In this document: one piece after another, positions 16,290-64,000 of the stretch
How positions within the stretch are numbered: position 1 is the first letter of the stretch
Layout: each line of letters opens with the position of its first letter
Source: an uncultured Clostridiaceae bacterium
GTDB taxonomy: Bacteria; Bacillota; Clostridia; Lutisporales; Lutisporaceae
NCBI GenBank assembly: GCA_964408955.1
Contig: CAYPBK010000004.1
Location: 31,279-95,278 of the forward strand
DNA length: 64,000 nt
Reading direction: 5' to 3'
The notes under the pieces: model-generated
What the model was told of the DNA's origin: nothing
What the model saw: only the letters and a program-made list of their open reading frames with translations
Databases searched by the model: none
Made by a program: the position numbers and the translations under genes

Positions 16290-16313
16290 AAAGGGCTATT
16301 ACAGCCCTTTTTT
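16289..16313. terminator. Bidirectional terminator between convergent addA and the GntR gene
   Basis: Stem AAAGGGCT, loop ATTAC, stem AGCCCTTT, flanked by an A-run and a T-run. Confidence 0.8.
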
Positions 16314-16941: not shown

Positions 16942-16967
16942 GTAGTTCCCCCCTGAATTTAATACTA

Positions 16968-17921
16968 TTAGGAAAAGCCTCCGCCGGTACGGATAAGGAT
17001 ACCTTGACTATTAGAGGACATAAAAGCTGCGACTTCCTGTATCCTTTCCACTGTTGGAATTGCTATATTAGTCAGTTTATATCTCAAACCGAGAGTCCTG
17101 TAAGTATCCACACCTAATCTGTGATAAGGCAACAGCTCTATTCCTTGTAATCTGTGAATTCCTTTGCAAAATTCAATGGTTGATAATAGGTTTTCCTCGG
17201 AATCGTTGATAAAGGGAATCAGCGGAATTCTAACAAAGATTTTAATAGGATATGATAAACTATCAACCTTTAATATATTTTTCAATATTAAACTATTGTT
17301 TACTCCCGTATATTTCTTATGGCTTTCATTATCCATATGCTTGATATCAACGTACAAGACATCTAAATAAGGAAGAACTTTTTCTATTTGGGTAAAAGGA
17401 GCAAACAGGCTTGTTTCCATTGCGGTATTTATACCTCTTCTTCTGCATTGCTTCATAACTTCTGATACGAATTTAGCTTGTATTAAAGGCTCACCGCCGC
17501 TGAAGGTAACTCCGCCATCAGAGTGATAGTAAAAGATTTCGTCCTTTGCGATTTCTTTAACCAAATCGTCAACGGTAATGATTCTTCCGTACTTTTTATA
17601 GGCGCTAGAAGGACATTTTTCATAACAGGCTAAATTCATATTACACTTATCTTTAGAAATATTAATTTTATTATCCAAGGATAGTGTTAAAGCGCCTTCA
17701 GGACAGGATTTTATACAAACACTGCAGCCGGTACATTTATCATATAAATAACCTTTTTCTATTTCCATATTATGTGATTCAGGAGTTGAACACCACCAAC
17801 ATCTCAAAGGGCAGCCTTTTATAAAAACAACAGTTCTCAGACCACTCCCATCATGGATAGAAGTTTTTTCAATTCTTAATATCATTCCTTTATCATTTAA
17901 AAAAGAATTCATATTCATCAC
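16968..17921 (-). CDS. Glycyl-radical-enzyme activating enzyme (radical SAM)
   Basis: GCPLRCWWCSTPES CX3CX2C motif. Ferredoxin-like Cys clusters (CTGCSVCIKSCPEGA and C..C..KCPSSA). GGVTFSGGEP SAM motif. The start overlaps the GRE stop (ATGA at 17918-17921). Confidence 0.9.
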   Translation of the reverse strand: MMNMNSFLNDKGMILRIEKTSIHDGSGLRTVVFIKGCPLRCWWCSTPESHNMEIEKGYLYDKCTGCSVCIKSCPEGALTLSLDNKINISKDKCNMNLACYEKCPSSAYKKYGRIITVDDLVKEIAKDEIFYYHSDGGVTFSGGEPLIQAKFVSEVMKQCRRRGINTAMETSLFAPFTQIEKVLPYLDVLYVDIKHMDNESHKKYTGVNNSLILKNILKVDSLSYPIKIFVRIPLIPFINDSEENLLSTIEFCKGIHRLQGIELLPYHRLGVDTYRTLGLRYKLTNIAIPTVERIQEVAAFMSSNSQGILIRTGGGFS

Positions 17922-20311
17922 CCCACAGAGATTCCTTGTTGTGTGGTGCGCCCAATAATCTCATCTTGAACATCTTTTCCTAATTCAACAAAATATGCGG
18001 TATATCCGGCAACTCTGACCAGCAAACCCTTATACTGATCAGGATTTTTTTGGGCATTAATAAGTTTTTCATTGTCAATTATATTAAACTGAATATGGTA
18101 AACACCGAGACTGCACATGCTTCTTAATAGTGCCATAAGCTGTTTAATACCGTTTTCTGTAGATAGCAAAGAAGGATCAATTTTCATGTTTAGTAAAGTA
18201 CCTTGAACAAAACGGTCATGGGGAATATTTGACACGGATTTTAATATAGCTCCTGGTCCGCTGAAGTCAGTTCCGCCACTGGGGCTTACTCCGTCAGCTA
18301 AAGGTCTCCAGGCATTTCTGCCTGAAGGAAGAGCTCCCACTTCCAAGCCGAAAGGAGTGTTCCCTGAGACAGGAAGTATACCCGGGGTCATCTTACCAAA
18401 TTTGCTGCTATACTTCTCTATTTCATCAGCAATGAAAGTAAAAAGTTCTCCGGCAAAAGCATCAACTTCAGAAATATCATTACCATATTTAGGAGCTTCA
18501 AGGCAAAGCCTTTTAATATAATCAAAACCTTGAAAATCCTTGTCAAGGGCTTCCAGCATTTCCTTCATGGGAATCTGTTTTCTATCATAGACAATGTTTT
18601 TGATAGCGGCAATACTGTTTATCAGGTCCGCCACACCGATAAGTATAATTCCGTTGCCCGTATTATACTTTGCTCCGCCCCAGGCATAGTCTTTGGCATT
18701 TTCTATGCAATCTTTGAAAGTTAAGGACAATGCAGGGACGGGTCTGTTCATGCATATCTCATCTATAACATGGCTGCCTTTTACAACAGCACGAACAGCA
18801 TAGGAAATCTGCCTCTTAATAGCATCCAGAAACTCTTCAAAAGTATTAAAGCTTTCTGGATTGCCGGTTCTTTCAGAGATATAGTTTTTACTTTTTCTAT
18901 GCATTCCGTCAAGGAGGGCGAATTCCACCATACTGCCTAAATTAATATCAGCAAGGGCAGTATAATGGCGAAGACGACCTTCCAAATTGGTTTCGACACA
19001 ACCGCATGGATTCCAATTTAAAGCTTCTTTTGAAGGTATGCCTTTATTCATCAGCATGCGTATACCGATATCATCATTGAAAAAAGCAGGAAAACCTGTA
19101 CCCAATTTAATAACCTCAACTATTTTTCTTAGAAACTCACCGGAATTCTTTGCCAGATTATATCTAACCGACAGGGAAGGTTGGTACATCTGGACCTCTG
19201 CCGTTGCTTGCAATATCAAATAAGATAAATCGTTGACGGCGTCTCTTCCAAAGGAATCCACTCCTCCTATGCTGACATTTTGAAACATGGGATATCCGGC
19301 GGCAAACTCGGCAGTGACAGCATCCTGAAACAAACAAGGTTCGCTGAATTTTACCCATAAGCAGTTTAACAGCTCCTGGGCATCTTCCTTCGTAATGAGG
19401 TTATCTAGAATATCCTTTTTATAATAAGGGTATAGATACTGATCCATCCTTCCGGGATTGTAGGAAGCGGCATTTTGCTCCATAAAAATGCATATATGGT
19501 AAAAGTATAAGGCTTGAAGGGCTTCTCTAAAAGTCCTGGCGGGATATTTAGGCACATGGCTACATGTGGCTGATATCTCCATTAGCTCAGCTTTTCTTTT
19601 ATCGTCTCTTTCCAGATTGGCCAAACGAAGTGCTTCATCGCTGTAACGCTTTGCCAAAGTTTTTATTCCATCTGCTGCAATTAGAAGAGATGTAAGGTAA
19701 TAATCCTTTTCATAATCTCCCGGAACAGTGATATCAAGCCTATTTTTTCTTTTTTGTATTTCCTCTTTAATGCCTTCGGTGCCTTTCGTAATCAGCCATT
19801 CGTAACCTGCTGTAGTTTCTCCCCATCCTCTGACAGCTTTTCTATTTATATAGACAACTCCGTTATCGCGCAAAGTCTTTGTATCTTGAGGGATTTGCTT
19901 AAGCCAAGCCTCGTAATTTGATTTGCCTTTCCAATAAGGCTTGATAACGTTTTTGAATACCTCACGGTCCTCCGGACTCAGAAAAAAAGGATCATATCTC
20001 CTTTTACTTATAGTATCCAGTTCCTCATTTAAGACAGACCAGCAAGTATCTGCACATAGAATGCCTCCTCGAATCTTGCTTCCGGAACAGCCGACAATAA
20101 GCTCATCATCCCAAATAGTAACTGTCTTTTCTTCGCATTGTTTTTTAAAGGCTTTTGCTTTTTGAATTACAAAAGGCTCTCCCTCAGTTTCCATAAAGCT
20201 CTCTGTTAAAATTCTCGCGTTTTCTAAATCAACTTCCGGTCTCGTGCTCAACACTCTGTGCTTTAGCCTGTTAATGCGATCCATATAAGCTTTTCTTGGT
20301 TCTTTATCCAT
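17918..20311 (-). CDS. Glycyl radical enzyme, PFL2/dehydratase-lyase class, substrate unknown
   Basis: C-terminal Gly-radical motif LVRVAGYTAYFVEL and Cys loop NPCGCVETN (Cys plus Glu two residues later). The ATG at 20311 (MDKEPRK) is preceded by AAGGGGTGAG. The track start at 20320 is a GTG inside that RBS. Confidence 0.85.
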   Translation of the reverse strand: MDKEPRKAYMDRINRLKHRVLSTRPEVDLENARILTESFMETEGEPFVIQKAKAFKKQCEEKTVTIWDDELIVGCSGSKIRGGILCADTCWSVLNEELDTISKRRYDPFFLSPEDREVFKNVIKPYWKGKSNYEAWLKQIPQDTKTLRDNGVVYINRKAVRGWGETTAGYEWLITKGTEGIKEEIQKRKNRLDITVPGDYEKDYYLTSLLIAADGIKTLAKRYSDEALRLANLERDDKRKAELMEISATCSHVPKYPARTFREALQALYFYHICIFMEQNAASYNPGRMDQYLYPYYKKDILDNLITKEDAQELLNCLWVKFSEPCLFQDAVTAEFAAGYPMFQNVSIGGVDSFGRDAVNDLSYLILQATAEVQMYQPSLSVRYNLAKNSGEFLRKIVEVIKLGTGFPAFFNDDIGIRMLMNKGIPSKEALNWNPCGCVETNLEGRLRHYTALADINLGSMVEFALLDGMHRKSKNYISERTGNPESFNTFEEFLDAIKRQISYAVRAVVKGSHVIDEICMNRPVPALSLTFKDCIENAKDYAWGGAKYNTGNGIILIGVADLINSIAAIKNIVYDRKQIPMKEMLEALDKDFQGFDYIKRLCLEAPKYGNDISEVDAFAGELFTFIADEIEKYSSKFGKMTPGILPVSGNTPFGLEVGALPSGRNAWRPLADGVSPSGGTDFSGPGAILKSVSNIPHDRFVQGTLLNMKIDPSLLSTENGIKQLMALLRSMCSLGVYHIQFNIIDNEKLINAQKNPDQYKGLLVRVAGYTAYFVELGKDVQDEIIGRTTQQGISVG

Positions 20312-20566
20312 TAATCTCACCCCTTTCTTCGATAAAGAATAGTATAAATTAAAGGAAGTATATTATTATTATATTTTAAATATATTATTGATATATTACA
20401 CTTCATTTTACAATATGTGATAATATTTGACAAGTACTTTAGTAAAAATAATGCATATTTATACTAAAAAAATTATAGTTAAGAAATGTTTTTTGCAGAT
20501 TATATTATGAATTTCAAAGGAATTCATGATATAATTTCATCTAGAATACATAAAAGGAGATTTGCT

Positions 20567-30928: not shown

Positions 30929-33900
30929 ATGAAAAGAACAATAGCATTAATTTTATCCTTTACCTTAGTTATAACAGGGCTTCTAGCTTCTCCTATTTAT
31001 GCAGCATCTATTAAAGTGAGTGAGGAAGCAAGAGCTCTTGAAACCATAGGTATGCTGGAGGGGGATGGGAGCGGAGTTACATCGGAGTATATGGGAAAAA
31101 GGATGCACCGGTTTACAGCCGCGATATCTATACTTAAGCTCAGGGGGCTTTATGATGAAGCCTTAAAATATACAAAGACAGGAAACTTTAAGGATATAGG
31201 TGTGGTTGAATGGAAAGAAGGAAGAAATATACTTGCTTATTTAAAAGCAAATCCCGATTTAGGATTTATAGGTAATGAAAAAGGTGAGTTTTTACCATAT
31301 AAAGATATAAGTGAGCAGGAATATTTTAAAGTACTTCTTGAAACCTTAGGCTATAAACAAAAAGTAAGCGGAAAATCCGGGGACTTTAGCTGGGGTGAAA
31401 CTCTTGATTATGCAAAAAACAAAGGCTTAAAACCATCTTATAAATCTGATTTTAATATTGATCTGCTTGCAAAGGCAACAGTATCCGCATTAAATGCTAA
31501 AACAAAGGCAGGTAAGGTCTACATTGTTATACTTGTAGATAGTGGTAAAGTTAAAAAATCAAAAGCAGTTTCTGCCGGATTTATTAAAGAAGAGCTTAAT
31601 GCTACGGTAAAAAGTGCAAAGGCCATCGGCAATACGGTAGTTGAAGTGAAATTCAAAGAAAATATCAGCAAATATGATGCTGAATATACCGGTAACTATT
31701 CCATAGACGGATTGTCTATAAAAGAAGCTATTTATACCGGCGATAATACAGTAAGACTGACTACATCATCTCAAAGCAATGGGAGGCAATATACGCTATA
31801 TGCGGGAGGTAGCAAAATTAGATTTACCGGGATATCAAAAATCTCAGGCGCTCCAAATATTAAAACAGTAAAAAGCGAGGATGATGAATCTGTAGTAGTC
31901 GAATTCGATAAAGAGCTGGACTACGATAGCGCTATGAATTCAAATAACTATACTATAGCCGGAGTAGATGTGGAAAAGGCTGTATTAACAGGTAAAAAGG
32001 TGGAACTGTCTACCTATGGACTGACATCTAGAAAACAATATACTTTAAAGGTTACGAACATGAAGTCTGTGGATGGGGCAGTACTAAAATCTCAATCTAA
32101 AACTTTTTCTAACAGACCGGACACTACACCGCCCTCTGTAAAAGAGGTTATAGCGGAGACGAATGAAAGAGTAATAGTTATTTTTTCCGAAGGGGTATCA
32201 AAGGATACAGCCGAGGATTTATATAATTACACTATAGAAAGCAACAACGGGGAATTGGATATTTATGAGGCAATACTATTTGGTGATGATGAGGATAGAG
32301 TTGAATTAGTGACGGAGCCTCAAAAAGCATCTGCTAAGTATGAGATTACAATAGAAAACATAGAGGATAAAACCAAAGTCGGTAATGTTATGAAAAAGGC
32401 CATAAAGAAAACATTTGTAGGAGCCAAAGAGGATAATACAGCACCATCTTTATCTAAAAATGATATTAAAATACTATCAAAAAACCGCATACAAGTAGCA
32501 TTTACTGATAATAGCAGGATGGACGAGGATACTGTATTAGATGCAGGTAATTATGAGCTGATAAAGAATGACAGATGGAAAGATGAAATATATGTAGACA
32601 ACGTAGAAAAGATATCCTTCGAAAGCGGTAAGTACAAGGTCGCTCTAGAAGTAGATGACTTGGAATCAAATATGAGCTACACTTTAAAGGTTTATAATAT
32701 TGCGGATGAATTCGGCAATGTTTTGGAGAAAAACAATACGGCTACTATTTCCATATCCAAAGAGGATTTGGCTCCGGCAAAATATAAATCACATAAAATG
32801 ACTAAGCTTGATGAAATAGAAATCGTATTTACAAAACCTCTGGATAAAGAGTCTGCTGAGGATGTATATAATTATTCAATTAACAATTACATTGGATATC
32901 CTTCAAAAGCCGTTTATAAGGATGAAAAAGTAATTCTAACCACGGCGAAAATGACTGAAGGCAAAACATACAGATTAACTATTGATGGTGTTGAGGACCA
33001 ATCAGGCAATGTGATAAGGCAAAATATTGATTTTAAAGCCGTTGCAGAGGTAAAAAGTGAAGTCGGTCCGGTGCTGGTGCATCTTACTTCTTTAAATAAA
33101 TATGTGGCAGCCGCAGTATTCGACAAGCCTGTAAGCTATACTTCAGACGGCTCTGATAGAACTATACTGATACTAAAAACAGGTTACACGGAGATTAAGT
33201 TGTATGCAAAAGCCACTTCTACCGATGAAAAAACCATTGAATTTTCAGACATAGAAGGAAGAAAGATTTTATCGGATTATGCTTATTACTCTATAGATGA
33301 GGATAAATCCCTTAGAGGAATAACAGACAAAACCGCAAATAAAAATAAATACGACAATTCAGTATTAAAGAACTATTATATTACAGTTCCCGGTAACAGC
33401 AGTGAGCCAGAGGCTTTAGAGGTTAAAGATATAACTCAGACAGATAACAGAACTTTTAAAGTTACTATGTCAAGAGAAGTGGTTATAAAAAGGAACACAG
33501 CAGAATCTTCACCTTATGCAATCTTTGCCGCGGGAGCCACTAATGATAAAAAGGTGGTTACATTTACAATAACGCCGGGATATATTAACGGCGGTACGGA
33601 TTACAAAATAGATTTAAGCAAAGTGTTAGAGGATAGACATGGTTTAAAATCAGAAAACACCGGAAAGGACTATACAACTTTTTATAGTGAAAATAAGGAC
33701 TATATTAAGCCTTTCATCAGGGGCGTAAGAGCTTTGGACGCCAATACTGTGGAAATAGAATATAATGAAGATATGGGTTATAGCGGTAAGTATACTATAA
33801 AGAATACGGACCCCTATGTCATCTATAACACTATTTTAACCTCATTGAAAAAAATTGATGGGAAGAAAGTGATATTATCGCTGAACATTCCTTTAGAGAA

Positions 33901-35356
33901 AAAATATCGATATAGCCTATTCATAGACGAGCAAGGGAAGGATTTAGCAGGAAACCCCAGCCTTGATTTGGTAGGAGATAAGTTTTTTATAGATGACACT
34001 GATGCAGGCTCTTTGAGTTTGCTGGATTATAAAGAGGCGGAAGCTTTAGTTGTAAAACTGGAAAATGCAGTAGTAACTCTAAATAATACTGAGCAAATAA
34101 ATACAGCAAAATCACATTTAAATAATGCCAATAAAAAAACTGCCTCGGTAAGTGATGCTAATTTAAAGAAAGATCTTAACAATAGAATTACTATAGCGGG
34201 CAGCAAAATTCAAACGGCCGAAGATAAGCTGGCAGCCAACGGCGTAATAACTAAAATAGATCTGCTTCCAAGCTATGCTAACTTGACCTTAGAACACAAG
34301 GGTATAGTAGAGGCTGCACGAAAAGCATACAATGACTTAACAAAGGCTCAAAAAGACTTAGTGACAAACTATAGTAAGTTGACGGGTGCAGAAGAAAGAA
34401 TAGCGGGCTTGATTACAGAGCAGGAGGAAAAGGAGCAAGAAAAGAAGAAGAAAGAAGCTGAGGAACAGGCAAAGCTTGCAACTGCAAAGGCGGCAGTGGA
34501 GGCCTTAGAAAATGCAGGAGAAAGTGCGTCCGGTAAGGCAACTGCTTTCCTTAACAAAGTAGAAGAAATGAATTTGGCATTAAACGCTTATATATCCTAT
34601 GTTCCATCTGATGGGCTGCTATATGCAGCAACACTTAGAGATACATTAGAAATGGAAGAAGGTAAAGCAATTAATGCAATTGCGGGTGCTGCAGCTTTGG
34701 TAAATGAGCTCGATTTGTTTATTGATACTTTGTCTGGGAAAATAGCAGCTGCGGAGGAAGCTTGTAAAAGCTTAGGCGAAGGAGATGCAAAAGTAATTCT
34801 ATCAGGCAGAACCCAAGCTGTAAAGTCTAAAATAGACGGTAATATCAAAGCTATAGGGGAAGCAAAGGAAAAAATAAAGAATGCAAAAATAGAAGCGGCA
34901 AAAAAATGGCTTAATGCGGGTATGCTGCCCTTTAACAAGACTGATAAAGCCGATAGTGATGCTCCGTTAATATTGCCCTTGGAAAACCATAAAGCCGGTG
35001 CAAGCTTTTACTACAAGGAAATAGGAAGTATAGTGGATGGTAGATTTGTTAAAGCCCAGGATGGTATGCAGAGATTCCATAATACTTTTAACAGTCTTGA
35101 TAAGGCAAACTTGCAGTTTGTTGATGAAATAAAAGGTGATAAAACTGTAAGAAGTATTAAAGTAAATAGAGGAGCAGAGCTTGCTGCCGTTGCTGTAAAG
35201 GTTGAGATAATAAGCGAGAATAAAACCACCTATAAAATATTCAATATCACAATACCTCCAAAAGCTATTGATACGACAGGCAATACGCCTGTAACAATAA
35301 CGGAGGTACAGGAAAGAACTATTACACAACAACAAAAAAGCTTTGGCTTTAGATAA
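30929..35356 (+). CDS. Giant surface (S-layer-associated) protein: signal peptide, SLH-like N-terminal repeats, many Ig-like (SbsA_Ig/Big-type) domains and a C-terminal coiled-coil region
   Basis: Signal peptide ending PIYAAS. SLH-like segment FKDIGVVEWKEG..L..GFIGNEKGEFLPYKDISEQEYFKVL. Repeated NY(T/S)I...V units. Ala/Lys/Glu-rich coiled coil at ~34.0-34.9 kb. Confidence 0.7.
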   Translation: MKRTIALILSFTLVITGLLASPIYAASIKVSEEARALETIGMLEGDGSGVTSEYMGKRMHRFTAAISILKLRGLYDEALKYTKTGNFKDIGVVEWKEGRNILAYLKANPDLGFIGNEKGEFLPYKDISEQEYFKVLLETLGYKQKVSGKSGDFSWGETLDYAKNKGLKPSYKSDFNIDLLAKATVSALNAKTKAGKVYIVILVDSGKVKKSKAVSAGFIKEELNATVKSAKAIGNTVVEVKFKENISKYDAEYTGNYSIDGLSIKEAIYTGDNTVRLTTSSQSNGRQYTLYAGGSKIRFTGISKISGAPNIKTVKSEDDESVVVEFDKELDYDSAMNSNNYTIAGVDVEKAVLTGKKVELSTYGLTSRKQYTLKVTNMKSVDGAVLKSQSKTFSNRPDTTPPSVKEVIAETNERVIVIFSEGVSKDTAEDLYNYTIESNNGELDIYEAILFGDDEDRVELVTEPQKASAKYEITIENIEDKTKVGNVMKKAIKKTFVGAKEDNTAPSLSKNDIKILSKNRIQVAFTDNSRMDEDTVLDAGNYELIKNDRWKDEIYVDNVEKISFESGKYKVALEVDDLESNMSYTLKVYNIADEFGNVLEKNNTATISISKEDLAPAKYKSHKMTKLDEIEIVFTKPLDKESAEDVYNYSINNYIGYPSKAVYKDEKVILTTAKMTEGKTYRLTIDGVEDQSGNVIRQNIDFKAVAEVKSEVGPVLVHLTSLNKYVAAAVFDKPVSYTSDGSDRTILILKTGYTEIKLYAKATSTDEKTIEFSDIEGRKILSDYAYYSIDEDKSLRGITDKTANKNKYDNSVLKNYYITVPGNSSEPEALEVKDITQTDNRTFKVTMSREVVIKRNTAESSPYAIFAAGATNDKKVVTFTITPGYINGGTDYKIDLSKVLEDRHGLKSENTGKDYTTFYSENKDYIKPFIRGVRALDANTVEIEYNEDMGYSGKYTIKNTDPYVIYNTILTSLKKIDGKKVILSLNIPLEKKYRYSLFIDEQGKDLAGNPSLDLVGDKFFIDDTDAGSLSLLDYKEAEALVVKLENAVVTLNNTEQINTAKSHLNNANKKTASVSDANLKKDLNNRITIAGSKIQTAEDKLAANGVITKIDLLPSYANLTLEHKGIVEAARKAYNDLTKAQKDLVTNYSKLTGAEERIAGLITEQEEKEQEKKKKEAEEQAKLATAKAAVEALENAGESASGKATAFLNKVEEMNLALNAYISYVPSDGLLYAATLRDTLEMEEGKAINAIAGAAALVNELDLFIDTLSGKIAAAEEACKSLGEGDAKVILSGRTQAVKSKIDGNIKAIGEAKEKIKNAKIEAAKKWLNAGMLPFNKTDKADSDAPLILPLENHKAGASFYYKEIGSIVDGRFVKAQDGMQRFHNTFNSLDKANLQFVDEIKGDKTVRSIKVNRGAELAAVAVKVEIISENKTTYKIFNITIPPKAIDTTGNTPVTITEVQERTITQQQKSFGFR

Positions 35357-41810: not shown

Positions 41811-42105
41811 TAGAACACCTACCTATTAAAAAATTCATTGTTACATTATATGCATCTAAAGAATTTAAGTTAGGGTCTTAAATAAATAAAAGCTACTTTT
41901 CACATGAATTTTTAGATTACAAAATTAAATAATCTATATTGAAACTATAGCTATATCTTAAAAGTAACAAAAAGTATTTATTAATAACAGTTATTACAAT
42001 AAAATATTGCATATATATTGTATTATTAATATACTTATATTTAGCAGGTAATAAAAAACTTGCAAAATGTCTAAAAATAAAACTACTTTTTGGAGGGATG
42101 AAACA

Positions 42106-43203
42106 ATGTTAAATAAAGAAAAGCTATCAAAATTAGTGGAAATTTTAAAGGAACGAAAGCTGGACGGTTGCATAATAACTCCCAGTCACGATTTGGAGTA
42201 CTTAACCGAAGCGCCAAGCTTTACCTGCGAAAGGTTCAGAGGCTTCTTTGTATTAGCTGACGGAAGATATTTTTCAATATGTCCTTCTCTTTATTATGAA
42301 GAGACTAGGAATACATTGGGAGAAGATACTCAAATATATGTATGGACTGACAGCGAAGGTGTAACGGATTCTTTCATAAAGGCTGAAAAAGATTATAAGC
42401 TGTCGGGTAAAACCATTGGAATAAATGAAGGCGTAAGAGCTATCGACCTCATAGATATGGGACAGGTTATCAAAGCTGATTTTATCAATGGTCATAGCAT
42501 GTTTGAAGACCTCAGAGTAATAAAAAATGAAGAGGAAGTAAGCTATTTAAAAGGTGCTGCTGTGATAGCGGATAAAGCTTTTGAGGGAATTGTAAAGTTT
42601 ATTAAACCGGGAATAAAGGAAAAGGATATTGCCGCTAAATTGAAAGAGCTGCTCATTGAGCTGGGAGGAGAAAGCCTATCTTTTGACCCTATCGTTGCTT
42701 CCGGACCAAACAGTTCAAAACCGCATTACAGCGAGGATGGCAGAGTTATAGAAAAGAATGATTTGATAATTTTAGATTACGGCTGCAAATACAAAGGCTA
42801 TTGTTCGGACATCTCCAGAGTGGTATTTGTGGGAGAGCCGACAGAAGAGCAAAAGAAAGTTTACGAAATAGTATTGAAAGCTAATATGGAGGCTGAAAAG
42901 GCAGTAAGAGAGGGTGCAACCGCTCATGAAATAGATGCAACTGCCCAAAGAGTTATTAAAGAAAATGGATACGGAGAATATATATTATCAAGGACAGGTC
43001 ATGGTATAGGTACTGCAGTACATGAAGCCCCCTACATAAGGGAAGGGAATGAGCAAATTTTAAAGACAGGTATGGCTTTTAGCGTTGAGCCCGGTATATA
43101 TATTGCCGGAAAATTTGGCATGAGAGTAGAGGATATAGTAGTAGTTGATGGCGATGGCGTAAATATACTTAACGAAGCACCCAAGGGAATGACGATAGTT
43201 TAA
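42106..43203 (+). CDS. M24-family Xaa-Pro dipeptidase/aminopeptidase (creatinase/prolidase N-domain + pita-bread domain)
   Basis: The metal ligand pattern D..D..H..E..E is visible (ILDYGCKYKGYCSDISR, TGHGIG, FSVEPGIY, MRVEDIV). The ATG at 42106 lies 8 nt after GGAGGG. Confidence 0.8.
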   Translation: MLNKEKLSKLVEILKERKLDGCIITPSHDLEYLTEAPSFTCERFRGFFVLADGRYFSICPSLYYEETRNTLGEDTQIYVWTDSEGVTDSFIKAEKDYKLSGKTIGINEGVRAIDLIDMGQVIKADFINGHSMFEDLRVIKNEEEVSYLKGAAVIADKAFEGIVKFIKPGIKEKDIAAKLKELLIELGGESLSFDPIVASGPNSSKPHYSEDGRVIEKNDLIILDYGCKYKGYCSDISRVVFVGEPTEEQKKVYEIVLKANMEAEKAVREGATAHEIDATAQRVIKENGYGEYILSRTGHGIGTAVHEAPYIREGNEQILKTGMAFSVEPGIYIAGKFGMRVEDIVVVDGDGVNILNEAPKGMTIV

Positions 43204-43217
43204 AATCCCGACCTCAA

Positions 43218-43323
43218 AGATCAATATTAGTGCCTAGAGGCGGAGGACGGATTGTAGGGGTCGACGACCCTGTCGACCCATTGTATGTTGATCTCATTAT
43301 CCAATCCTGGCGCCAGAGACAAA
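43218..43323 (+). promoter_or_regulatory. GC-rich structured leader/intergenic element upstream of the GRE activase
   Basis: A 10-bp helix forms between AGATCAATAT (43218-27) and ATGTTGATCT (43285-94). An 8-bp GC hairpin forms from GGGTCGAC (43258-65) and GTCGACCC (43272-79). Alternative pairing exists between GGCG..GGATTG (43239-54) and CAATCC..CGCC (43302-14). A CTGGCGCCAG palindrome is also present. Confidence 0.5.
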
Positions 43324-43343
43324 AGACAAAAACCAAAGAGGTG

Positions 43344-44252
43344 ATGCTGTTGGAAGGTGTTATATTTAACATAATGAAATACTCCATACATGATGGTCCA
43401 GGTATCAGAACCACCGTATTTTTCAAAGGCTGCCCTTTGAGCTGCAGCTGGTGTCATAATCCCGAGGGGCGTAAAACCTCTTTGCAGGTGGTCAGATTTC
43501 CTAACAAATGCATAGGATGCGGCAAATGTGTCAGGGTATGCCCGACAAATGCTATTTATATGGAAAAGGGCGAAATAAAATTCGATATAAATAAATGCAA
43601 CCAATGCGGGGAATGCACAAAGCTATGCTATGCCGCTGCCATGGAGATAGTCGGCAAAGCTGTTACAGTGAATGAGGTTATGAAAGAGATTGAAAAGGAC
43701 TATGTCTTTTACGAAGAATCCGGTGGGGGTGTGACATTTTCCGGAGGAGAGCCCTTTGCCCAACCTGAGTTTTTAAAGGAGCTTTTGAAAAGCTGTAAGA
43801 ATAAAGGTATCCATACCGCAGTTGATACATGCGGCTATGTGAAGGAGGATATTTTATTAGATAATGCCCCGCTTATAGACCTATTCCTTTACGATATAAA
43901 AATAATGGATGATAAAGAGCATATAAAATACACAGGAGTATCCAATAAAATAATACTTGAAAATCTAAAAGCACTAACGGAGCTAGATAAAAGGATTTTT
44001 ATAAGGATACCGATAATTCCGGGTATATCAGACAGCGATAAAAATATTGATGAAATCTCAAAATTCCTGCTGCCATTAAGAAATATTGAGCAGATTAATA
44101 TTTTGCCCTATCATAATATTGCTACGGAGAAATATAAGAGATTGGGGAAGGAATACAGTTTGGAGGCTGTTGAAATACCCTCTGATGAAAAAATGGCAAA
44201 TATACAAAGAAAACTTGAATCCCAAGGGTTTAAAGTAAAGATAGGAGGTTAG
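43344..44252 (+). CDS. Glycyl-radical-enzyme activating enzyme (radical SAM), HypD-associated
   Basis: GCPLSCSWCHNPEG. Two ferredoxin-type clusters (CIGCGKCVRVCP and CNQCGECTKLC). GGVTFSGGEP. The ATG at 43344 follows AGAGGTG. The track start at 43230 runs through the structured leader. Confidence 0.9.
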   Translation: MLLEGVIFNIMKYSIHDGPGIRTTVFFKGCPLSCSWCHNPEGRKTSLQVVRFPNKCIGCGKCVRVCPTNAIYMEKGEIKFDINKCNQCGECTKLCYAAAMEIVGKAVTVNEVMKEIEKDYVFYEESGGGVTFSGGEPFAQPEFLKELLKSCKNKGIHTAVDTCGYVKEDILLDNAPLIDLFLYDIKIMDDKEHIKYTGVSNKIILENLKALTELDKRIFIRIPIIPGISDSDKNIDEISKFLLPLRNIEQINILPYHNIATEKYKRLGKEYSLEAVEIPSDEKMANIQRKLESQGFKVKIGG

Positions 44253-44256
44253 TATT

Positions 44257-46617
44257 GTGAGAGAAAGAGTTAGAATCCTTAGGCAAAAAAGCTTGGACGC
44301 AATCCCGACTATTTCCATTGAAAGAAGCCAAATTGTTACTAATGCATATAAAAAATATGGAGGCAAAGTATCTGTACCTGTTCTTCGTGCAATGGTTTTT
44401 AAAGAACTATGCGAAAATAAAACCATTTGCATAAACGATAACGAGCTTATTGTAGGAGAAAGAGGTCCGCTGCCAAAGGCTACACCAACATTTCCCGAAC
44501 TCTGCTGCCATACTATTGAGGATTTTGACATTATGGATAAAAGAGAAAAGGTGTTTTTTAAAGTAGAGGAAGATATAAAAAGAATACAAAAAGAAGAGAT
44601 AATACCCTTTTGGGAAGGCAAAGCGATAAGGGACCTTCTTCTTAACAACATGAGTGACCAGTGGAAAGAGTGCTACGAAGCAGGCATATTTACAGAATTT
44701 ATGGAACAAAGGTCACCGGGGCATACAGTAGCTGACGGCAAAATATACGAAAAAGGCTTCTTAGACTTTAAAAAGGATATAGAAGGGGAAATAAAAAAGC
44801 TTGATTTTTTAAATGACAGCGAAGCTTATGGGAAGCGGGAAGAGCTAAAAGCAATGACCATATGCTGTGATGCAATCATTACATTTGGCAAAAGGCATGG
44901 AGAAAAAGCTATAGAATTAGCGGCAATGGAAAAGGATGAAAAAAGAAAAGAAGAGCTGTTAAAAATAGCTGAGGTATGCAGTCACGTACCGGCTCATGCG
45001 CCTAGGAATTTTTGGGAAGCATTGCAAATGTATTGGTTTGTTCATTTAAGTGTAGTTACGGAGCTTAACACCTGGGATGCTTTTAATCCGGGTAGGCTGG
45101 ATCAGCATTTATATCCTTTTTATAAAAAAGGCATAGAAGAGGGAACTATTACCGACGAAGATGCCAGAGAGATGCTTCAGCTATTTTGGATCAAGTTTAA
45201 CAATCAGCTGGCACCTCCCAAGGTGGGGATAACCTTAAAGGAAAGTGCCACATATACGGATTTTGCAAACATCAACTCCGGCGGTTTAAAGGCTGACGGC
45301 TCTGACGGGGTAAACGATATGAGCTATATGGTGCTCGATGTTATTGAAGAGATGAGACTACTGCAGCCCAGCTCCAATATACAGCTTAGTAAGAAAAACC
45401 CCGATAGATTTTTGAAAAGAGCCCTTAAAATCCTGGAAACAGGCTTTGGCCAGCCTTCCTTGTTTAATGCGGAAGCGGTAGTAGAAGAAATGCTCCATGC
45501 GGGTAAATCCGTGGAGGATGCCAGATGCGGCGGAACAAGTGGATGCGTTGAAACGGGAGCCTTTGGGAAGGAAGCTTATATATTGACGGGATATTTTAAT
45601 CTGGTAAAGGTTTTTGAAATAACACTAAACAACGGCGTAGATCCCAGAACAAATAAAAAAATTGGAATAGATACGGGAAATGCGAGAAGCTTTAAATCCT
45701 ATGAAGAATTATTCAAAGCCTTTAAAAAGCAGCTTAAGCATTTTATAGAGATAAAAATCAAAGGAAACAATGTAATTGAAAGACTATATGCAGACAACAT
45801 GCCTTGTCCTTTCCTTTCTGTTATAATCGATGATTGTATCAAAAAAGGCAAAGACTATAATAGGGGCGGTGCGAGATACAATACCAGGTATATTCAAGGT
45901 GTCGGCATAGGCACTCTTACGGACAGTCTGGCATCAATTAAAAAACATGTTTTCGAGGATGAAACGCTAACAATGGCAGAAATGCTTGAGGCTTTGGAAT
46001 GCAATTTTGAAGGGAAAGAGGATATAAGGCAGCTGTTCCTGAACAAAACCCCTAAATATGGTAATGATGACGATTACGCTGATGATATTATGAAGGAAGC
46101 CTTTAATGCCTACTATGAAGAAGTAAGCGGCAGACCTACAGCTTGTGGTGGGACCTATAGAATAGATATGCTTCCAACCACTTGTCATGTGTACTTTGGG
46201 GAAGTAACAAATGCCACCCCTGACGGGAGAAAAGCCGGAAAGCCTCAATCCGAGGGGATTTCCCCGGTTCAAGCCAGCGATAAATACGGTCCAACGGGCG
46301 TAATAAAATCTGCAAGCAAAATGGATCATATAAAAACAGGGGGAACACTTTTGAATCAAAAATTTACCCCCGATTTAGTCAAGTCTGAAGAAGGACTGGA
46401 CAAATGGGCGCAGTTGGTAAGGACTTATTTCAAGCTGGGCGGTCACCATATACAATTTAATGTAGTAGATGCAGATACATTGAGAGAGGCACAAAAAAAT
46501 CCCGAGGAATACAGAGACCTAATAGTTCGTGTGGCAGGATACAGCGATTACTTCAATGACTTGGGTGAGAACCTGCAAAACGAAATAATCGAAAGAACAG
46601 AGCATAAAGGATTTTAA
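44257..46617 (+). CDS. hypD: Glycyl radical enzyme, trans-4-hydroxy-L-proline dehydratase-like
   Basis: IVRVAGYSDYFNDL Gly-radical motif and TSGCVETG Cys loop. Long stretches match my recollection of Clostridioides difficile HypD (FTEFMEQRxPGHTV, NPGRLDQHL.PFY, PPKVGITLKES.TYTDFANIN, GGARYNTRYIQGVGIG, TPKYGNDDDYAD, MDHIKTGGTLLNQ). GTG start after AGGAGG. Confidence 0.8.
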   Translation: MRERVRILRQKSLDAIPTISIERSQIVTNAYKKYGGKVSVPVLRAMVFKELCENKTICINDNELIVGERGPLPKATPTFPELCCHTIEDFDIMDKREKVFFKVEEDIKRIQKEEIIPFWEGKAIRDLLLNNMSDQWKECYEAGIFTEFMEQRSPGHTVADGKIYEKGFLDFKKDIEGEIKKLDFLNDSEAYGKREELKAMTICCDAIITFGKRHGEKAIELAAMEKDEKRKEELLKIAEVCSHVPAHAPRNFWEALQMYWFVHLSVVTELNTWDAFNPGRLDQHLYPFYKKGIEEGTITDEDAREMLQLFWIKFNNQLAPPKVGITLKESATYTDFANINSGGLKADGSDGVNDMSYMVLDVIEEMRLLQPSSNIQLSKKNPDRFLKRALKILETGFGQPSLFNAEAVVEEMLHAGKSVEDARCGGTSGCVETGAFGKEAYILTGYFNLVKVFEITLNNGVDPRTNKKIGIDTGNARSFKSYEELFKAFKKQLKHFIEIKIKGNNVIERLYADNMPCPFLSVIIDDCIKKGKDYNRGGARYNTRYIQGVGIGTLTDSLASIKKHVFEDETLTMAEMLEALECNFEGKEDIRQLFLNKTPKYGNDDDYADDIMKEAFNAYYEEVSGRPTACGGTYRIDMLPTTCHVYFGEVTNATPDGRKAGKPQSEGISPVQASDKYGPTGVIKSASKMDHIKTGGTLLNQKFTPDLVKSEEGLDKWAQLVRTYFKLGGHHIQFNVVDADTLREAQKNPEEYRDLIVRVAGYSDYFNDLGENLQNEIIERTEHKGF

Positions 46618-52252: not shown

Positions 52253-53629
52253 ATGAAAGAATTAGAAAAAATAATTGAAGACATGAAATTTATATTTGAA
52301 AGCCTTCATGATGGAATATCAGTCATTGACCATAGAGGGATTATTGCCTATGTAAATGATTCCAACACAAGGATTACAAAGAGGGATAAAAGCTTTTTCC
52401 TAGGCAAGCATGTACAGGATACAGTTCCGGATTCCGGTATGGCTGCAGCCTTATCAACGGGTAAAAAGCTTATTGGCATAACCACTCATGTTTTTGATGC
52501 TACGGTTATTTCAAATATAGTGCCTATTAAGGATGGCAACCGCATAATTGGCGTAATATCTATATTCAGAGATATTACTGATATTAAGAACCTTACGGAC
52601 AAGCTAGATTATGCCAATACGACTATAAAGCAGCTTTATGAAAAGCTTAAAGAGGTAAATGAGAACAAAAGTGATTTTGTAGTAGGACAAAGTGATATCA
52701 TGAAGGATGTTATGAAAATTGCCCTTAAAGCCGCAATAGTGGACTCCAATCTCCTGATAGAAGGCGATAGCGGCACCGGCAAGGAGGTGCTGTCCAGGTT
52801 TATTCATAAAAACAGCCCGAGGAAGGATAACCCTTTTCTTGCCATAAACTGTGCATCTATACCTTTTAATCTTTTGGAATCAGAGCTTTTTGGGTATGAA
52901 GAGGGTGCGTTTACGGGAGCCAGGAAAGGCGGGCACCCCGGTTACTTTGAGATGTCTGCCGGAGGAACACTTTTGCTGGATGAAATAGGTGATATGGATA
53001 TTGCTCTTCAATCAAAGCTTTTAAGAGTGATACAGAGCAAAGAAATAATTAGGGTTGGAGGCAATAAAGTCCTTCCTTTGGATGTGCGTATAATGGCAGC
53101 CACCCATAAAAATCTAAAGGAGCTTGTAGAAAAAGGAAAGTTCAGAGAGGACCTCTACTATCGCCTTGAGGTAATAAGGATTAAAATACCTTCCCTTAAA
53201 GAGAGAAAGGAAGACATAATATACTATATAGATAATATGATGGATAAAATGAGTAAAAAGCTAGGTAGAGATATTCATATAGGGGAGGACGCATTAAAGC
53301 TCCTGCTAAATTACGATTATCCGGGCAATATTCGTGAACTGGAAAATATATTAGAAAGAGCAACGGTAATGGACGAGGATAATATAATAAGCGCTAAGGA
53401 TTTGCCCCTTTATATAACCGAATCCGTAGGCAGAAATAAAAGCAAGCTAAGCCTTGTTTATCCCGATCATTTTCCTACATTGGATGAATTAGAAGCCGAC
53501 GCTATTAAGAATGCTTTAAAAAAGTATAAAAACAAATCAAAAGCTGCGGATATGCTTAACATTTCAAGAGTAACTTTATATAGAAAAATGGAGAAGTATC
53601 AATTAAACAATCATGAAGAAGAGCAATAA
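52253..53629 (+). CDS. Sigma-54-dependent transcriptional activator (PAS sensor + AAA+ + Fis-type HTH)
   Basis: GDSGTGKE Walker A, ESELFGYEEGAFTGA (GAFTGA sigma-54 contact motif), and the C-terminal segment AADMLNISRVTLYRKMEKY. Confidence 0.9.
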   Translation: MKELEKIIEDMKFIFESLHDGISVIDHRGIIAYVNDSNTRITKRDKSFFLGKHVQDTVPDSGMAAALSTGKKLIGITTHVFDATVISNIVPIKDGNRIIGVISIFRDITDIKNLTDKLDYANTTIKQLYEKLKEVNENKSDFVVGQSDIMKDVMKIALKAAIVDSNLLIEGDSGTGKEVLSRFIHKNSPRKDNPFLAINCASIPFNLLESELFGYEEGAFTGARKGGHPGYFEMSAGGTLLLDEIGDMDIALQSKLLRVIQSKEIIRVGGNKVLPLDVRIMAATHKNLKELVEKGKFREDLYYRLEVIRIKIPSLKERKEDIIYYIDNMMDKMSKKLGRDIHIGEDALKLLLNYDYPGNIRELENILERATVMDEDNIISAKDLPLYITESVGRNKSKLSLVYPDHFPTLDELEADAIKNALKKYKNKSKAADMLNISRVTLYRKMEKYQLNNHEEEQ

Positions 53630-54000: not shown

Positions 54001-55374
54001 ATGAGAAAACCGGAACCCTTTAAAATCAAAATGGTAGAGCCGATAAATCTTATTTCAAAAGAGGAGAGAGAGAAGGCTCTGGAAGAAGCGGGATACAACC
54101 CTTTTTCACTAAAAGCAAAGGATATTTTTATAGACATTTTAACAGATAGCGGAACAGGAGCTATGAGCGATAGGCAATGGGCCGGGCTTATGATGGGCGA
54201 CGAGTCCTACGCTGGGAGCAGGAGCTTCTATAAATTGGAGGCGGCTGCACAGGATTTATTTAACTATAAATACATCATCCCCACCCACCAAGGCAGAGGT
54301 GCTGAGCAGGTATTATTTCCTCAAATGCTGAAAAAAGGTCAGGATGTTTTAGGTAACATGCATTTTGACACAACTATGGCTCACATAGAATTAGCCGGAG
54401 GACACGCTGTAAATCTTGTTCATGAAAGAGCCTTTGATACTGTTACACCTTATCCTTTTAAAGGAGATTTTGACTTAGAAAAGTTGGAAAACTATATTAA
54501 GACAAGAGGAGTAGAGAATATAGCATTCCTAATCATGACTATCACTTGTAACAGTGCAGGCGGACAGCCGGTATCCATGGCTAATATGAGAGGAGTCAAG
54601 GAAATTTGTGATAAATACGGTATAAGAGTATTTATTGATGCAGCCAGGTTTGCGGAGAATGCATATTTTATAAAGATCAGAGAAGAAGGCTACGCAGACA
54701 AATCTATAAAAGAAATAGTAAGAGAAATGTTCTCATATGCCGAGGGCTTCTCCATGAGTGCTAAAAAGGACGCTATCGTCAATATGGGCGGTCTGGTAGG
54801 GATAAAGAATGATGAAGAGCTATATGTTAACACCAGATCAATAACTGTACCTTATGAAGGATTCCCAACCTATGGCGGACTATCCGGAAGAGATATTGAA
54901 GCTTTGGCAGTTGGTCTATACGAAGGTACTGATGAAGCCTATCTCGAATACAGAATAAACCAAATCAACTATTTGGGTGAAAGACTGGCAGAAGGCGGAG
55001 TGCCTTTCCAATCGCCTCCGGGAGGCCATGCAATATTTGTAGATGCCAAAAAGATGCTTCCTCATATACCCTACTATGAATTCCCCGCACAGGCATTAGC
55101 AAATGCGCTATATATTGAAGGCGGTATTAGGGCAGTTGAAATAGGCTCCTTCCTGCTCGGCAGGGATCCGGAAACAGGTGAGCAGAGGGAATCTGATATG
55201 GAACTGTTAAGGCTGACAATTCCAAGAAGAGTTTATACGGATAATCATATGGATTATATTGCTGATTGTTTAATTGCTCTCAAGGATAAAGCTTCAGAAA
55301 TAAAAGGTGTGGAAATAGTATACGAACCAAAGGTTCTGAGACATTTCACAGCAAGGCTTAAACCCGTTAAATAG
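54001..55374 (+). CDS. Tryptophanase / tyrosine phenol-lyase family beta-eliminating lyase (C-terminal half closer to TnaA)
   Basis: [38 protein letters not shown] (PLP Lys), [35 protein letters not shown] and [24 protein letters not shown]. Confidence 0.85.
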
Positions 55375-62200: not shown

Positions 62201-62752
62201 ATGGGCAGACAATTTGATTATGATATTATGACGGAAATAAAAGAAAGATGGTCCATGAGAGCTTTTTCTGAAGAAAAGATAAGCAATGATGATATTATGT
62301 CAGTTTTAGAAGCCGCGAGATATGCCCCATCATGTTTTAATGAGCAGCCTTGGAGGTATATTATTGCAGATAATGAAGAAAGACTTATTAAAATGAGAGG
62401 TGTGTTGGCTGAATCTAATCAAATCTGGGCTAATGCGGCTCCGATTTTGATTGCTATTCTGGCTAAAAGAAACTTTGATTATAACGGCAAAAATAATTTT
62501 TGGCACATGTTTGACACCGGTACTGCTTGGGGATACCTATCCTTGGAAGCCCAAAGAAGAGGTCTTGCCACCCATGCCATGGGCGGCTTCAGTAGAAAAG
62601 CATTAAGAGAGGAATTTAATGTTTCTGATGATTATGAGATAATTTGTGTTGTGGCTTTAGGTAAGCCCGGTGATAAGGAAAAGCTGCCGGAAAGCTTAAA
62701 AGATAGGGAAAAACCAGATATAAGGAAAAGCATCAAAGAACTGTTACTATAA
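62201..62752 (+). CDS. Nitroreductase-family flavoprotein
   Basis: RWSMRAFSEEKISNDDIMSVLEAARYAPSCFNEQPWRYII is the canonical nitroreductase N-terminus. GAGGAGGGG RBS. Confidence 0.8.
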   Translation: MGRQFDYDIMTEIKERWSMRAFSEEKISNDDIMSVLEAARYAPSCFNEQPWRYIIADNEERLIKMRGVLAESNQIWANAAPILIAILAKRNFDYNGKNNFWHMFDTGTAWGYLSLEAQRRGLATHAMGGFSRKALREEFNVSDDYEIICVVALGKPGDKEKLPESLKDREKPDIRKSIKELLL

Positions 62753-62818
62753 CAATATCTGATAAAGAGGCTTTATATATTTTAATAATAAGCATAGGAA
62801 TATAAATTTAAAAAACTC

Positions 62819-62847
62819 TTGAAATAGTGAACAATTAATGGTAGAAT
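62819..62847 (+). promoter_or_regulatory. Sigma-A promoter of the T-box leader
   Basis: TTGAAA (62819-24), 17-nt spacer ending in TG-n, TAGAAT (62842-47). Confidence 0.65.
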
Positions 62848-62865
62848 GAATTTTAATAAATTCAA

Positions 62866-63250
62866 TGAAGGTTCAAAGTAAATCGGTAACAGCCTTTTAG
62901 GGAAAAGCTGTCATAGACTGCAAGCAGCTTTAGGATATGCCCGATTGAAGTTCGCTCCTGAGAAGCCGCCTGAAATATTATTAGGGTAGGCCGCAAATTC
63001 CCGGCGTTAACAAGGGTAAGGGTATCGGATTTGTCCCGTACTCTATGAGGCTGCTGTCTATTATTTAGACAAAAGGTGGTTTATGAAAATAACTTTTCAT
63101 TCCTTTTGGGGTGAAAGGTTTTTTTATTTCATATAGTATCGGTGGTATTCTTGTATCCCTAAAAAAGAGGACTTTAATGTCAAAATGGGTGGTACCGCGG
63201 AAATAGGTCGCTTTCGTCCCAAAGGAAAGCGGCTAATATTTTTTGGAGGT
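62866..63250 (+). ncRNA. T-box riboswitch leader (probable Phe specifier)
   Basis: K-turn-like AATGAAGG...CCTGAGAA. Stem I AAATCGG (62880-86) pairs with CCGATT (62941-46). AGGGA AG-box at 62899-903. The specifier loop GAAG-UUC-G has UUC at 62951-53. CGTTAA is F-box-like. The conserved T-box sequence is AATGGGTGGTACCGCG (GGGTGGTACCGCG = 63187-99). The terminator GTCGCTTTC/GAAAGCGGC is followed by a T-run, then the GGAGGTG RBS. Confidence 0.75.
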
Positions 63251-63255
63251 GCCTT

Positions 63256-64000
63256 ATGAAAACAATAATTCAAGAAAAATCAAGCTTAATTTGTCAAAAA
63301 CCAAAGGGTAGCTTATGTGACAATTGTCTTAACTGCATGGCAGTGAGGTCAGTTTTAGAGAGGGAGTCAAAAAGTGGTGAAGAAAATGAAGATGCAAGAA
63401 AGGAGTTAGAAGAAAAGCAAATTTTAAAGCTCAAGGACACTGTTCAGCTATTAAAAAACAAAGTACCTCATTATAAAAGGGTCCTTGGGGATGTAGAGGC
63501 AGAAGATATTAAGTCTGTAAAGGATATACAAAAGCTACCTTTTACAACAAAGGATGATTTAAGGGAAAACTATCCTTTTGGTTTGTTTGCAGTATCACAG
63601 AAAAACTTAGCCCGGATTCATGCCTCGTCGGGTACTACGGGTAAATCAACGGTAGTAGGTTATACCACCGGAGACATAGAATCTTGGGCGGAGATGGTTG
63701 CGGATGAACTGAGGCTAATTGGAGTTACTAAGGAAGATACCGTTCAAGTAGCTTATGGGTATGGTTTGTTCACAGGGGGATTGGGGCTTCATTACGGTGT
63801 GGAAAAGCTTGGAGCTACGGTTGTCCCTATTTCAGTAGGTAACACAACTAAACAGCTGCAGTTGATGGAGGATTTCGGTACTACTGTTTTAGCTTGCACG
63901 CCATCCTATGCTTTGCATCTTGCAGAAGCGGGCAGGGAACAAGGAATCAATTTTAATAAGCTTCCCATTAGGATAGGCATATTCGGCGCCGAGCCATGGA
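63256..64000 (+). CDS. Phenylacetate-CoA ligase (PaaK)-family adenylate-forming enzyme, 3'-truncated by the window edge
   Basis: [47 protein letters not shown] and [12 protein letters not shown] are PaaK-family motifs. A ~45-aa N-terminal Cys-containing extension ([15 protein letters not shown]) is present. Confidence 0.8.

Follow-up and report, generated by a model that had tools for sequence, protein, structure and literature searches.

The 64-kb stretch of DNA analysed here (64,000 nucleotides of contig CAYPBK010000004.1, from an uncultured Clostridiaceae bacterium; called the window below) ends within a gene of the PaaK family of phenylacetate-CoA ligases, and this gene is preceded by a T-box riboswitch leader. 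The intergenic stretch concerned (62753-63255) follows a nitroreductase gene (62201-62752; Pfam PF00881). It holds a promoter, a T-box leader of the transcriptional type (62856-63246, forward strand) and a ribosome-binding site (RBS), after which the PaaK-family open reading frame (ORF) begins. A preliminary description, made from the sequence alone, had proposed a T-box leader with a Phe specifier at this place, and the promoter, K-turn, AGGGA box, F-box, T-box sequence, terminator and RBS all lie where it had put them. It had taken the leader to carry a single antiterminator and terminator; a second module was found in about 150 nt that it had overlooked (63011-63165). In this leader a single Stem I does the decoding and is followed by two discriminator/terminator modules, which makes it a partially tandem T-box (Table 1).

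Leader anatomy and specifier codon

A permissive scan of 62700-63400 with RF00230, the Rfam T-box model, aligned model positions 1-219 to 62856-63224 with 88.6 bits (E 7e-20); the Rfam gathering cut-off for this family is 93 bits. Stem I shows the GA/K-turn, a specifier loop with S-turn, codon and 3' purine, the AG box and the distal loop, the aligned motifs being AUGA...GAG, AGUA/GAA, UUC-G, AGGGA and a distal UGCAA T-loop. Stem II and the Stem IIA/B pseudoknot follow; in the latter the loop CCC (63000-63002), as read from the sequence, is able to pair with GGG (63014-63016). The score stays under the cut-off because the model must skip the insert of about 150 nt, which separates the F-box from the final Stem III. 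The covariance-model scan suggested in the preliminary description yielded the full-length alignment, with UUC in the specifier columns, at a score below the family threshold.

Comparable leaders stand before PaaK homologues in two groups of the homologue loci that were retrieved (labelled L001 and so on). A sister species, represented by three variants (L031/L052/L053, L032/L033 and L058/L059), has the double-module leader in all of them, upstream of a ligase 75% identical to that of the window; its leaders likewise score under the gathering cut-off, at 84-86 bits. L034 and L035 are short Logan contigs identical to the window. A second clade, comprising L001 (= L036), L002, L003, L004, L037 and L042, carries single-module T-boxes directly upstream of the PaaK homologues, with leader scores of 90-106 bits and ligases about 60-63% identical to the window ligase. 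Orthologous leaders free of the insert reach 97-106 bits, except that of L003 (89.7). Leaders that score under the gathering cut-off are therefore overlooked by standard annotation.

Comparison of these leaders assigns the specifier to Phe with high confidence, because UUC-G is constant while the base before it varies. About ten distinct PaaK leaders all have this tetranucleotide (the window, L031, L032, L058, L001, L002, L003, L004, L037 and L042), and the preceding base is G, A or AA. In the second clade the 3' side of the specifier loop reads GAA-G-UUC-G, GAA-A-UUC-G or GAAA-A-UUC-G, and in L001-L004 a clear GAGG/CCUC helix closes the loop from below, leaving UUC-G as the last four unpaired bases. 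A Phe T-box is expected to combine a UUC or UUU specifier with a UGGN that pairs next to A73, and both are seen: the bulges of the two modules begin with UGGU and fit an A73-CCA acceptor end, A73 being the discriminator base of bacterial tRNA-Phe. UUC also conforms to the C-rule for T-box specifiers (PMC7778990, PMC7583486).

Two other readings of the loop would place the specifier one base upstream (GUU, Val), an option kept in the preliminary description, or one base downstream (UCG, Ser). The loop boundaries are indeed blurred by a weak lower helix in the window clade (the window and the sister species), and UCG is, like UUC, invariant among the leaders. However, L001 and L003 have AUU (Ile) in place of GUU, and the base after GUU would be a pyrimidine; UCG, for its part, ends in G, contrary to the C-rule, and would put the conserved 3' purine inside the GAGG/CCUC helix of L001-L004. 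The covariance model, moreover, places UUC in the specifier columns of every leader. On these grounds both the Val and the Ser specifier were rejected, and a specifier other than Phe appears very improbable.

Two antiterminator/terminator modules

The additional module is carried by the insert. When the 3' module was removed, RF00230 aligned over its full length to 62856-63107, through module 1, with 65.7 bits (E 3e-14), and the insert shares with the canonical 3' module the layout Stem III - AAAA - (G)GGUGGU.... Module 1 consists of a first Stem III, an antiterminator (AT1) and a terminator (T1). AT1 runs CAAAAGG-[UGGUUU]-AUGAAAA-UAAC-UUUUCAU-U-CCUUUUG, so that helix A1 (CAAAAGG/CCUUUUG) and helix A2 (AUGAAAA/UUUUCAU) are separated by the bulge UGGUUU (63077-63082); it includes a degenerate T-box sequence, AAAAGGUGGUUUAUG (63071-63089). 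In module 2 the canonical T-box sequence UGGG-UGGUACC-GCGGA (63186-63201, with GGGUGGUACCGCG at 63187-63199) forms a bulged antiterminator (AT2) that displays 5'-UGGN-3'. Its UGGU is complementary to ACCA-3', in agreement with the earlier proposal that this bulge fits an A73-CCA acceptor end.

Terminator and antiterminator exclude one another in each module, with 63091-63108 shared by T1 and AT1 and 63206-63221 shared by T2 and AT2. The T1 hairpin (63091-63120, followed by U7) was the only terminator called in this region by a consensus scan. Terminator 2 (T2), with a 10-bp stem at 63206-63234 and a U-run at 63239-63244, is absent from these calls because its loop is longer than 8 nt. The stability advantage of the terminator over the antiterminator is about 6-7 kcal/mol and is alike in the two modules. 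The linker between the modules is too short for a second Stem I, and the leader therefore has a single decoding domain.

Table 1. Features of the leader and of the 5' part of the ligase gene (window coordinates; energies in kcal/mol)
Feature	Position	Strand	Basis
Sigma-70-type promoter, TTGAAA-17-TAGAAT	62819-62847	+	Consensus scan, 10/12 matches, TGn-extended -10
Stem I: GA/K-turn motif, specifier loop with S-turn (AGUA...GAA), distal T-loop	62856-62965	+	RF00230
AG box, AGGGA	62899-62903	+	RF00230 alignment
Specifier codon UUC (Phe), then unpaired purine G62954	62951-62953	+	RF00230 specifier columns
Stem II	62965-62991	+	RF00230 alignment
Stem IIA/B pseudoknot with F-box GCGUUAA (63004-63010)	62965-63018, including Stem II	+	RF00230 alignment
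Clade-specific conserved spacer/hairpin region, GGGUAUCGGAUUUGUCCCGUAC...	63019-63055	+	Insertion relative to the covariance model; 82% identity to sister species
First Stem III, GUCUA-UUAUU-UAGAC, 5 bp	63056-63070	+	RF00230 after removal of the 3' module; minimum-free-energy fold
Antiterminator 1 (AT1), bulged two-helix element	63070-63108	+	Fold, -7.9 to -8.7
17-codon ORF, MKITFHSFWGERFFYFI, within AT1/T1	63083-63136	+	From sequence
Terminator 1 (T1): 13-bp stem, UUUU loop, U7 tract	63091-63125	+	Consensus scan; -15.3
Non-conserved inter-module linker, 33 nt	63128-63160	+	33% identity to sister species
Second Stem III, GAC...GUC	63170-63181	+	RF00230 alignment
Antiterminator 2 (AT2) with canonical UGGG-UGGUACC-GCGGA	63186-63221	+	RF00230; invariant in clade members; about -8.4 to -8.9
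Terminator 2 (T2): GGUCGCUUUC/GAAAGCGGCU, 9-nt loop, UAAUAUUUUUU tail	63206-63244	+	-14.4 (about -14.4 to -14.7)
RBS, GGAGG, 6 nt ahead of ATG 63256	63245-63249	+	From sequence; conserved in sister species
Cys-rich N-terminal segment, C-x7-C-x2-C-x2-C, in frame with the ligase	63256-63396	+	Sequence comparison
PaaK-family aryl-acetate-CoA ligase, N-terminal half	63397-64000	+	TIGR02155, Pfam, PDB; ORF leaves the window

Conservation follows the structured parts of the leader. Between the window and L031, identity is 84% in Stem I, 89% in Stem II/IIAB, 80% in the first Stem III with AT1/T1 and 93% in the second Stem III with AT2/T2, compared with 33% in the inter-module linker. The promoter region (62815-62855) is 52% identical; the sister species has kept both hexamers (-35 and -10), with divergence in the spacer between them. 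At the position of the clade-specific spacer, L001-L004 have an unrelated and variable hairpin. Within AT1 of the sister species AAAAGG is changed to AAAGGG, converting an A-U pair to G.U, and two U.G pairs are changed to U-A, with pairing preserved throughout. At the base of the T1 stem, an A-U pair is replaced by G-C through a compensatory double change. Seen in two independent lineages only, these substitutions speak for selection acting on each of the two alternative folds of module 1.

This pattern also bears on whether the leader could be a decaying, non-functional T-box relic, with the gene silenced or expressed constitutively. A relic might be expected to score beneath the Rfam gathering cut-off, as this leader does, and to show a degenerate first T-box sequence and a weak lower Stem I helix. 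Yet identity is 80-93% in the structured parts and 33% in the linker, T1 has been maintained by compensatory change, and neither the promoter nor the RBS nor the ORF is damaged; as the terminators are both strong, a leader without antitermination would shut off a conserved gene. The idea of a decayed relic was rejected for the conservation of the structured parts, the compensatory change and the intact promoter, RBS and ORF, and we give it hardly any credence.

A further alternative concerns T1 alone. The 17-codon ORF within AT1/T1 might encode a Phe-rich leader peptide during whose synthesis ribosomes stall over the 5' strand of T1 at low Phe-tRNA, so that T1 would be under ribosome control and only module 2 would be a true T-box. 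The ORF contains five Phe codons as well as codons for Trp and Tyr, Phe codons occur on the 5' strand of T1, and its Shine-Dalgarno (SD)-like AAGGUGG and its AUG are both kept in the sister species. However, the frames of the two lineages part after codon 9, the base changes are non-synonymous and more readily accounted for by RNA pairing, and the SD-to-AUG spacing is only 3-4 nt. Phe codons are, besides, expected from a U-rich terminator sequence, and an antiterminator that has a UGGU bulge and a Stem III of its own follows the plan of a T-box. Among Firmicutes, attenuation coupled to ribosomes is uncommon. Control of T1 by ribosome-mediated Phe attenuation was rejected on account of the diverging frame, the non-synonymous changes and the T-box-type design; we judge it improbable, and the ORF is probably a by-product of the U-rich structure and not a leader peptide.

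In three loci of the second clade, GGGGGUGGUUGC or GGGGGUGAUUGCCC lies just 3' of the single T-box terminator (L001 3460-3480, L003 about 9905-9925 and L037 about 3672-3690). This element, with no terminator after it, may be the relic of a second antiterminator.

The ligase gene and its neighbourhood

The ORF starts with ATG 63256 and is open to the end of the window at 64000, with PaaK homology from residue 47 onwards. As the window protein is partial, its match to TIGR02155 (PaaK; 258 bits) covers the first half of the model, positions 4-207. Residues 47-248 match Pfam AMP-binding and the PDB entries 2Y27, 2Y4O, 2Y4N and 4R1L at E 1e-53 to 1e-63 (2Y4O and 2Y27, E 1e-63), so the regulated gene is PaaK-like, as had been proposed. 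Sequence scores indicate a member of the PaaK family and do not support the status of a PaaK equivalog, for which the NCBIfam cut-off of TIGR02155 is 646.3 bits: full-length ligases under T-box control score 532.8 (sister species L031) and 609.4 (L002), whereas a ligase linked to IOR, L049, passes with 654.9. The T-box-linked ligases lie under the equivalog cut-off, and their substrate could therefore be another aryl acid. The structurally characterized Burkholderia cenocepacia PaaK1/PaaK2 (2Y27, 2Y4N, 2Y4O) and 4R1L belong to the same fold family; they differ in being part of the aerobic phenylacetate catabolon and in having no Cys-rich N-terminus, and the window clade stays below the cut-off.

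The unusual Cys-containing N-terminal extension of about 45 residues noted in the preliminary description is present and fused to the ligase in the window, but not in the sister species, where its equivalent is a separate ORF of 50-51 codons (MKTLVKEKNYPQCQKVEKLSCDNCLSCLAVYF...) directly after the T-box terminator and RBS. This mini-ORF (L031 5868-6023, L052 900-1055, L058 459-614) overlaps the TTG start of the ligase by 23 nt, and the ligase has an AAGGAGG of its own. Window and L031 are 60% identical across the mini-ORF, and the four Cys residues are kept in the window and the sister species with the spacing C-x7/8-C-x2-C-x2-C. None of the best 120 protein matches spans residues 1-47, and the segment has neither a Pfam match nor a homologue outside the clade formed by the window and the sister species. 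The occurrence of fused and split forms suggests, on the basis of gene structure, that the Cys-rich segment may be a physical partner of the ligase.

Homologues without a T-box mostly occur in another context. At about 24 such loci among those retrieved, iorA-iorB (domains POR_N/TPP_enzyme_C/Fer4 plus POR) lies immediately upstream of the ligase gene, and in most of them a gene for an ACT-pair protein lies immediately downstream. The window ligase is 56-70% identical to the IOR-linked ligases of these iorA-iorB-paaK-ACT clusters, which are found in anaerobic bacteria and archaea, and its closest homologues without a T-box are IOR-linked. The T-box copies have lost the adjacency to iorAB and so do not sit in an iorAB-paaK-ACT module. 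Five or six of them retain the ACT-pair gene: in L001-L004 and L037 the T-box operon consists of the ligase and the ACT-pair protein, followed by unrelated MCP genes. ACT-domain proteins are typical of amino-acid-responsive regulation. In the window clade the ACT gene has been lost too and the Cys-rich mini-ORF gained; in L031 a Fic-like gene comes after the ligase and ACT is absent.

A few loci looked similar on first view but were set aside. L054, a PaaK-ACT pair without IOR, has no T-box in its 318-nt upstream gap. L028 carries a Trp-specifier (UGG) T-box at 12155-12403 (97.5 bits) right after a PaaK-ACT pair, where it controls a trpB-like gene (MKKGRFGAFGGQY...), and L011 has another UGG T-box at 19917-20164, about 8 kb downstream of an IOR-PaaK-ACT cluster. 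Both were rejected as regulators of PaaK, being Trp-specific and acting on genes downstream of PaaK-ACT.

Proposed regulation and pathway

We consider it likely that the leader is a tRNA-Phe(GAA)-specific, transcription-attenuating double-module T-box that controls an aryl-acetate-CoA ligase, likely for Phe salvage. Transcription would start at about 62855, and Stem I would show the codon UUC and dock tRNA-Phe by GAA:UUC pairing together with its elbow platform. At each module in turn, the ACCA-3' end of uncharged tRNA-Phe would pair with the UGGU bulge and stabilize the antiterminator, which would stay in place until the polymerase has moved past the U-tract. Charged tRNA would be unable to stabilize the antiterminator, and transcription would stop at 63125 or 63244. 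The polymerase would pass both checkpoints only when tRNA-Phe is largely uncharged, and on readthrough the Cys-rich mini-domain fused to the AMP-forming aryl-acetate-CoA ligase would be transcribed. Residual readthrough would multiply over two serial terminators, giving tighter expression and demanding a deeper fall in charging; the same argument for tighter control has been made for fully tandem T-boxes (PMC12452182).

Since a gene induced by Phe starvation is expected to raise the supply of Phe, the most coherent reading of the target is an anabolic route that would lead from phenylacetate over phenylacetyl-CoA and phenylpyruvate to Phe. An AMP-forming ligase suits the activation of an acid rather than energy conservation, and methanogens as well as rumen anaerobes have an aryl-acid route to aromatic amino acids. 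The ligase probably forms phenylacetyl-CoA from exogenous phenylacetate; an IOR-type arylpyruvate:ferredoxin oxidoreductase, encoded elsewhere, would carboxylate the CoA ester reductively to phenylpyruvate, which would then be transaminated to Phe. Methanogen IORs have been proposed to run reductively for amino-acid biosynthesis (PMC13285125, citing Tersteegen et al. 1997).

Several observations weigh against the proposed regulation and role. At the level of the RNA, the leader misses the RF00230 gathering cut-off of 93 bits, and Rfam at gathering thresholds gave zero matches over the whole 64-kb window. In the window clade the helix under the specifier loop has no more than GG/CC, two Watson-Crick pairs that lie between mismatches of the type U.U and U.C (or U.U). 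The AT1 bulge reads UGGUUU and not UGGNACC, which makes its competence for tRNA binding uncertain, and AT1/T1 is known in two independent lineages only, with a single compensatory event. The 64-kb window contains no tRNA gene that would show the anticodon and residue 73. As to the product, the T-box-linked ligases do not reach the equivalog cut-off for PaaK, IorA and IorB queries in tblastn matched neither the 64-kb window nor any of the T-box loci, and genes for IOR, an aminotransferase and the ACT protein are absent from the 64-kb window and from the surroundings of the sister-species gene.

Part of this evidence fits a ligase that is governed by the same T-box but is not anabolic, serving instead in phenylacetate detoxification, catabolism or secondary metabolism, or acting on some other aryl or acyl substrate with a captured Phe T-box. 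No T-box-linked copy has an IOR or aminotransferase gene beside it, the ligases score under the equivalog cut-off, and the IOR of Bacteroides works in the catabolic direction, from Phe to phenylacetate (PMC13285125). Induction by Phe starvation would, however, be senseless for a pathway of a Phe degradation product, and the pairing of Phe T-box and ligase has been kept over two clades whose ligases are only about 60% identical. The closest homologues are IOR-linked, and in five or six leaders the ligase is co-transcribed with an ACT-pair protein, as is typical of amino-acid-responsive biosynthetic control. A non-anabolic ligase thus seems unlikely to us, if not negligibly so, and Phe salvage is preferred.

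For the double-module T-box there are two ways in which one Stem I might be reconciled with two discriminators. After T1 has been passed, the 3' end of the tethered tRNA could move from AT1, the degenerate antiterminator, to AT2, the canonical one, or AT2 could capture a second uncharged tRNA without the help of Stem I. We put forward, as a tentative and somewhat doubtful proposal, that the one Stem I serves both modules, either with the 3' end of the same tRNA-Phe checked twice in a kinetic double-check or with a Stem I-less AT2 that samples any uncharged A73 tRNA, and that the Phe T-box marks the widespread IOR-associated PaaK/ACT module as a salvage system from aryl acids to amino acids in Clostridia, with the Cys-rich micro-protein as a hitherto unknown partner of the ligase.

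With the T-box family RF00230 (for example the Bacillus subtilis tyrS and pheS leaders) the leader shares every canonical module from Stem I to the competing terminator, and with Phe T-boxes the UUC specifier. It differs from the family in its 150-nt insert, its sub-gathering score and its weak lower Stem I helix, and in its target, which is an aryl-acetate-CoA ligase and not an aminoacyl-tRNA synthetase, a de novo biosynthesis gene or a transporter. Partially tandem T-boxes, which Vitreschak and colleagues are said to have described in 2008 as duplicated terminator-antiterminator elements, have the same succession of one specifier-bearing Stem I and two Stem III/antiterminator/terminator modules; here the degenerate module (bulge UGGUUU) comes first and the canonical one second. 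Their modes of action are stated to be unknown (PMC7583486). Fully tandem T-boxes, as in trp, ilv/leu and thrS/thrZ operons of Bacillota (PMC12452182), are comparable in having serial checkpoints that need a deeper fall in charging, but they consist of two or three complete riboswitches, each with a Stem I, an arrangement that the 33-nt linker precludes here.

The leader thus represents a known riboswitch class in a rare but known architecture, with a target that is apparently unreported. In line with the preliminary description, for which such a link was not known to have been described, the literature searched contains nothing connecting a T-box with phenylacetate-CoA ligase, paaK, COG1541 or F390 synthetase; the main comparative surveys of T-boxes lay outside this search, so that an earlier mention is possible. 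The specifier of a T-box reliably indicates the function of the gene under its control. The PaaK-like family is common in anaerobes and usually annotated as catabolic, and a conserved Phe T-box on one of its members provides regulatory evidence for a role in Phe supply in anaerobes, beyond aromatic degradation. It suggests that anaerobes may turn on a phenylacetate-to-phenylalanine salvage when Phe is short, with a bearing on the exchange of phenylacetate and aromatic amino acids by Clostridia of the gut, the rumen and digesters. The leader also offers a clear case, found in nature, of the partially tandem type; its single Stem I is combined with a degenerate discriminator and a canonical one.

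Other genes of the window include a 1475-aa ORF (30929-35356) with no Pfam match at E 1e-5 and a PAS-domain sigma-54 activator (52253-53629). The latter is followed by a beta-eliminating lyase of the tryptophanase/tyrosine phenol-lyase family (54001-55374), a gene of aromatic amino-acid catabolism that lies about 8 kb ahead of the Phe T-box. Two glycyl-radical enzymes of 800 and 786 aa (PFL-like plus Gly_radical) are encoded within 16312-20320 on the reverse strand and within 42067-46617 on the forward strand; the second is preceded by an M24 peptidase (42067-43203) and a radical-SAM/Fer4 activase (43230-44252).

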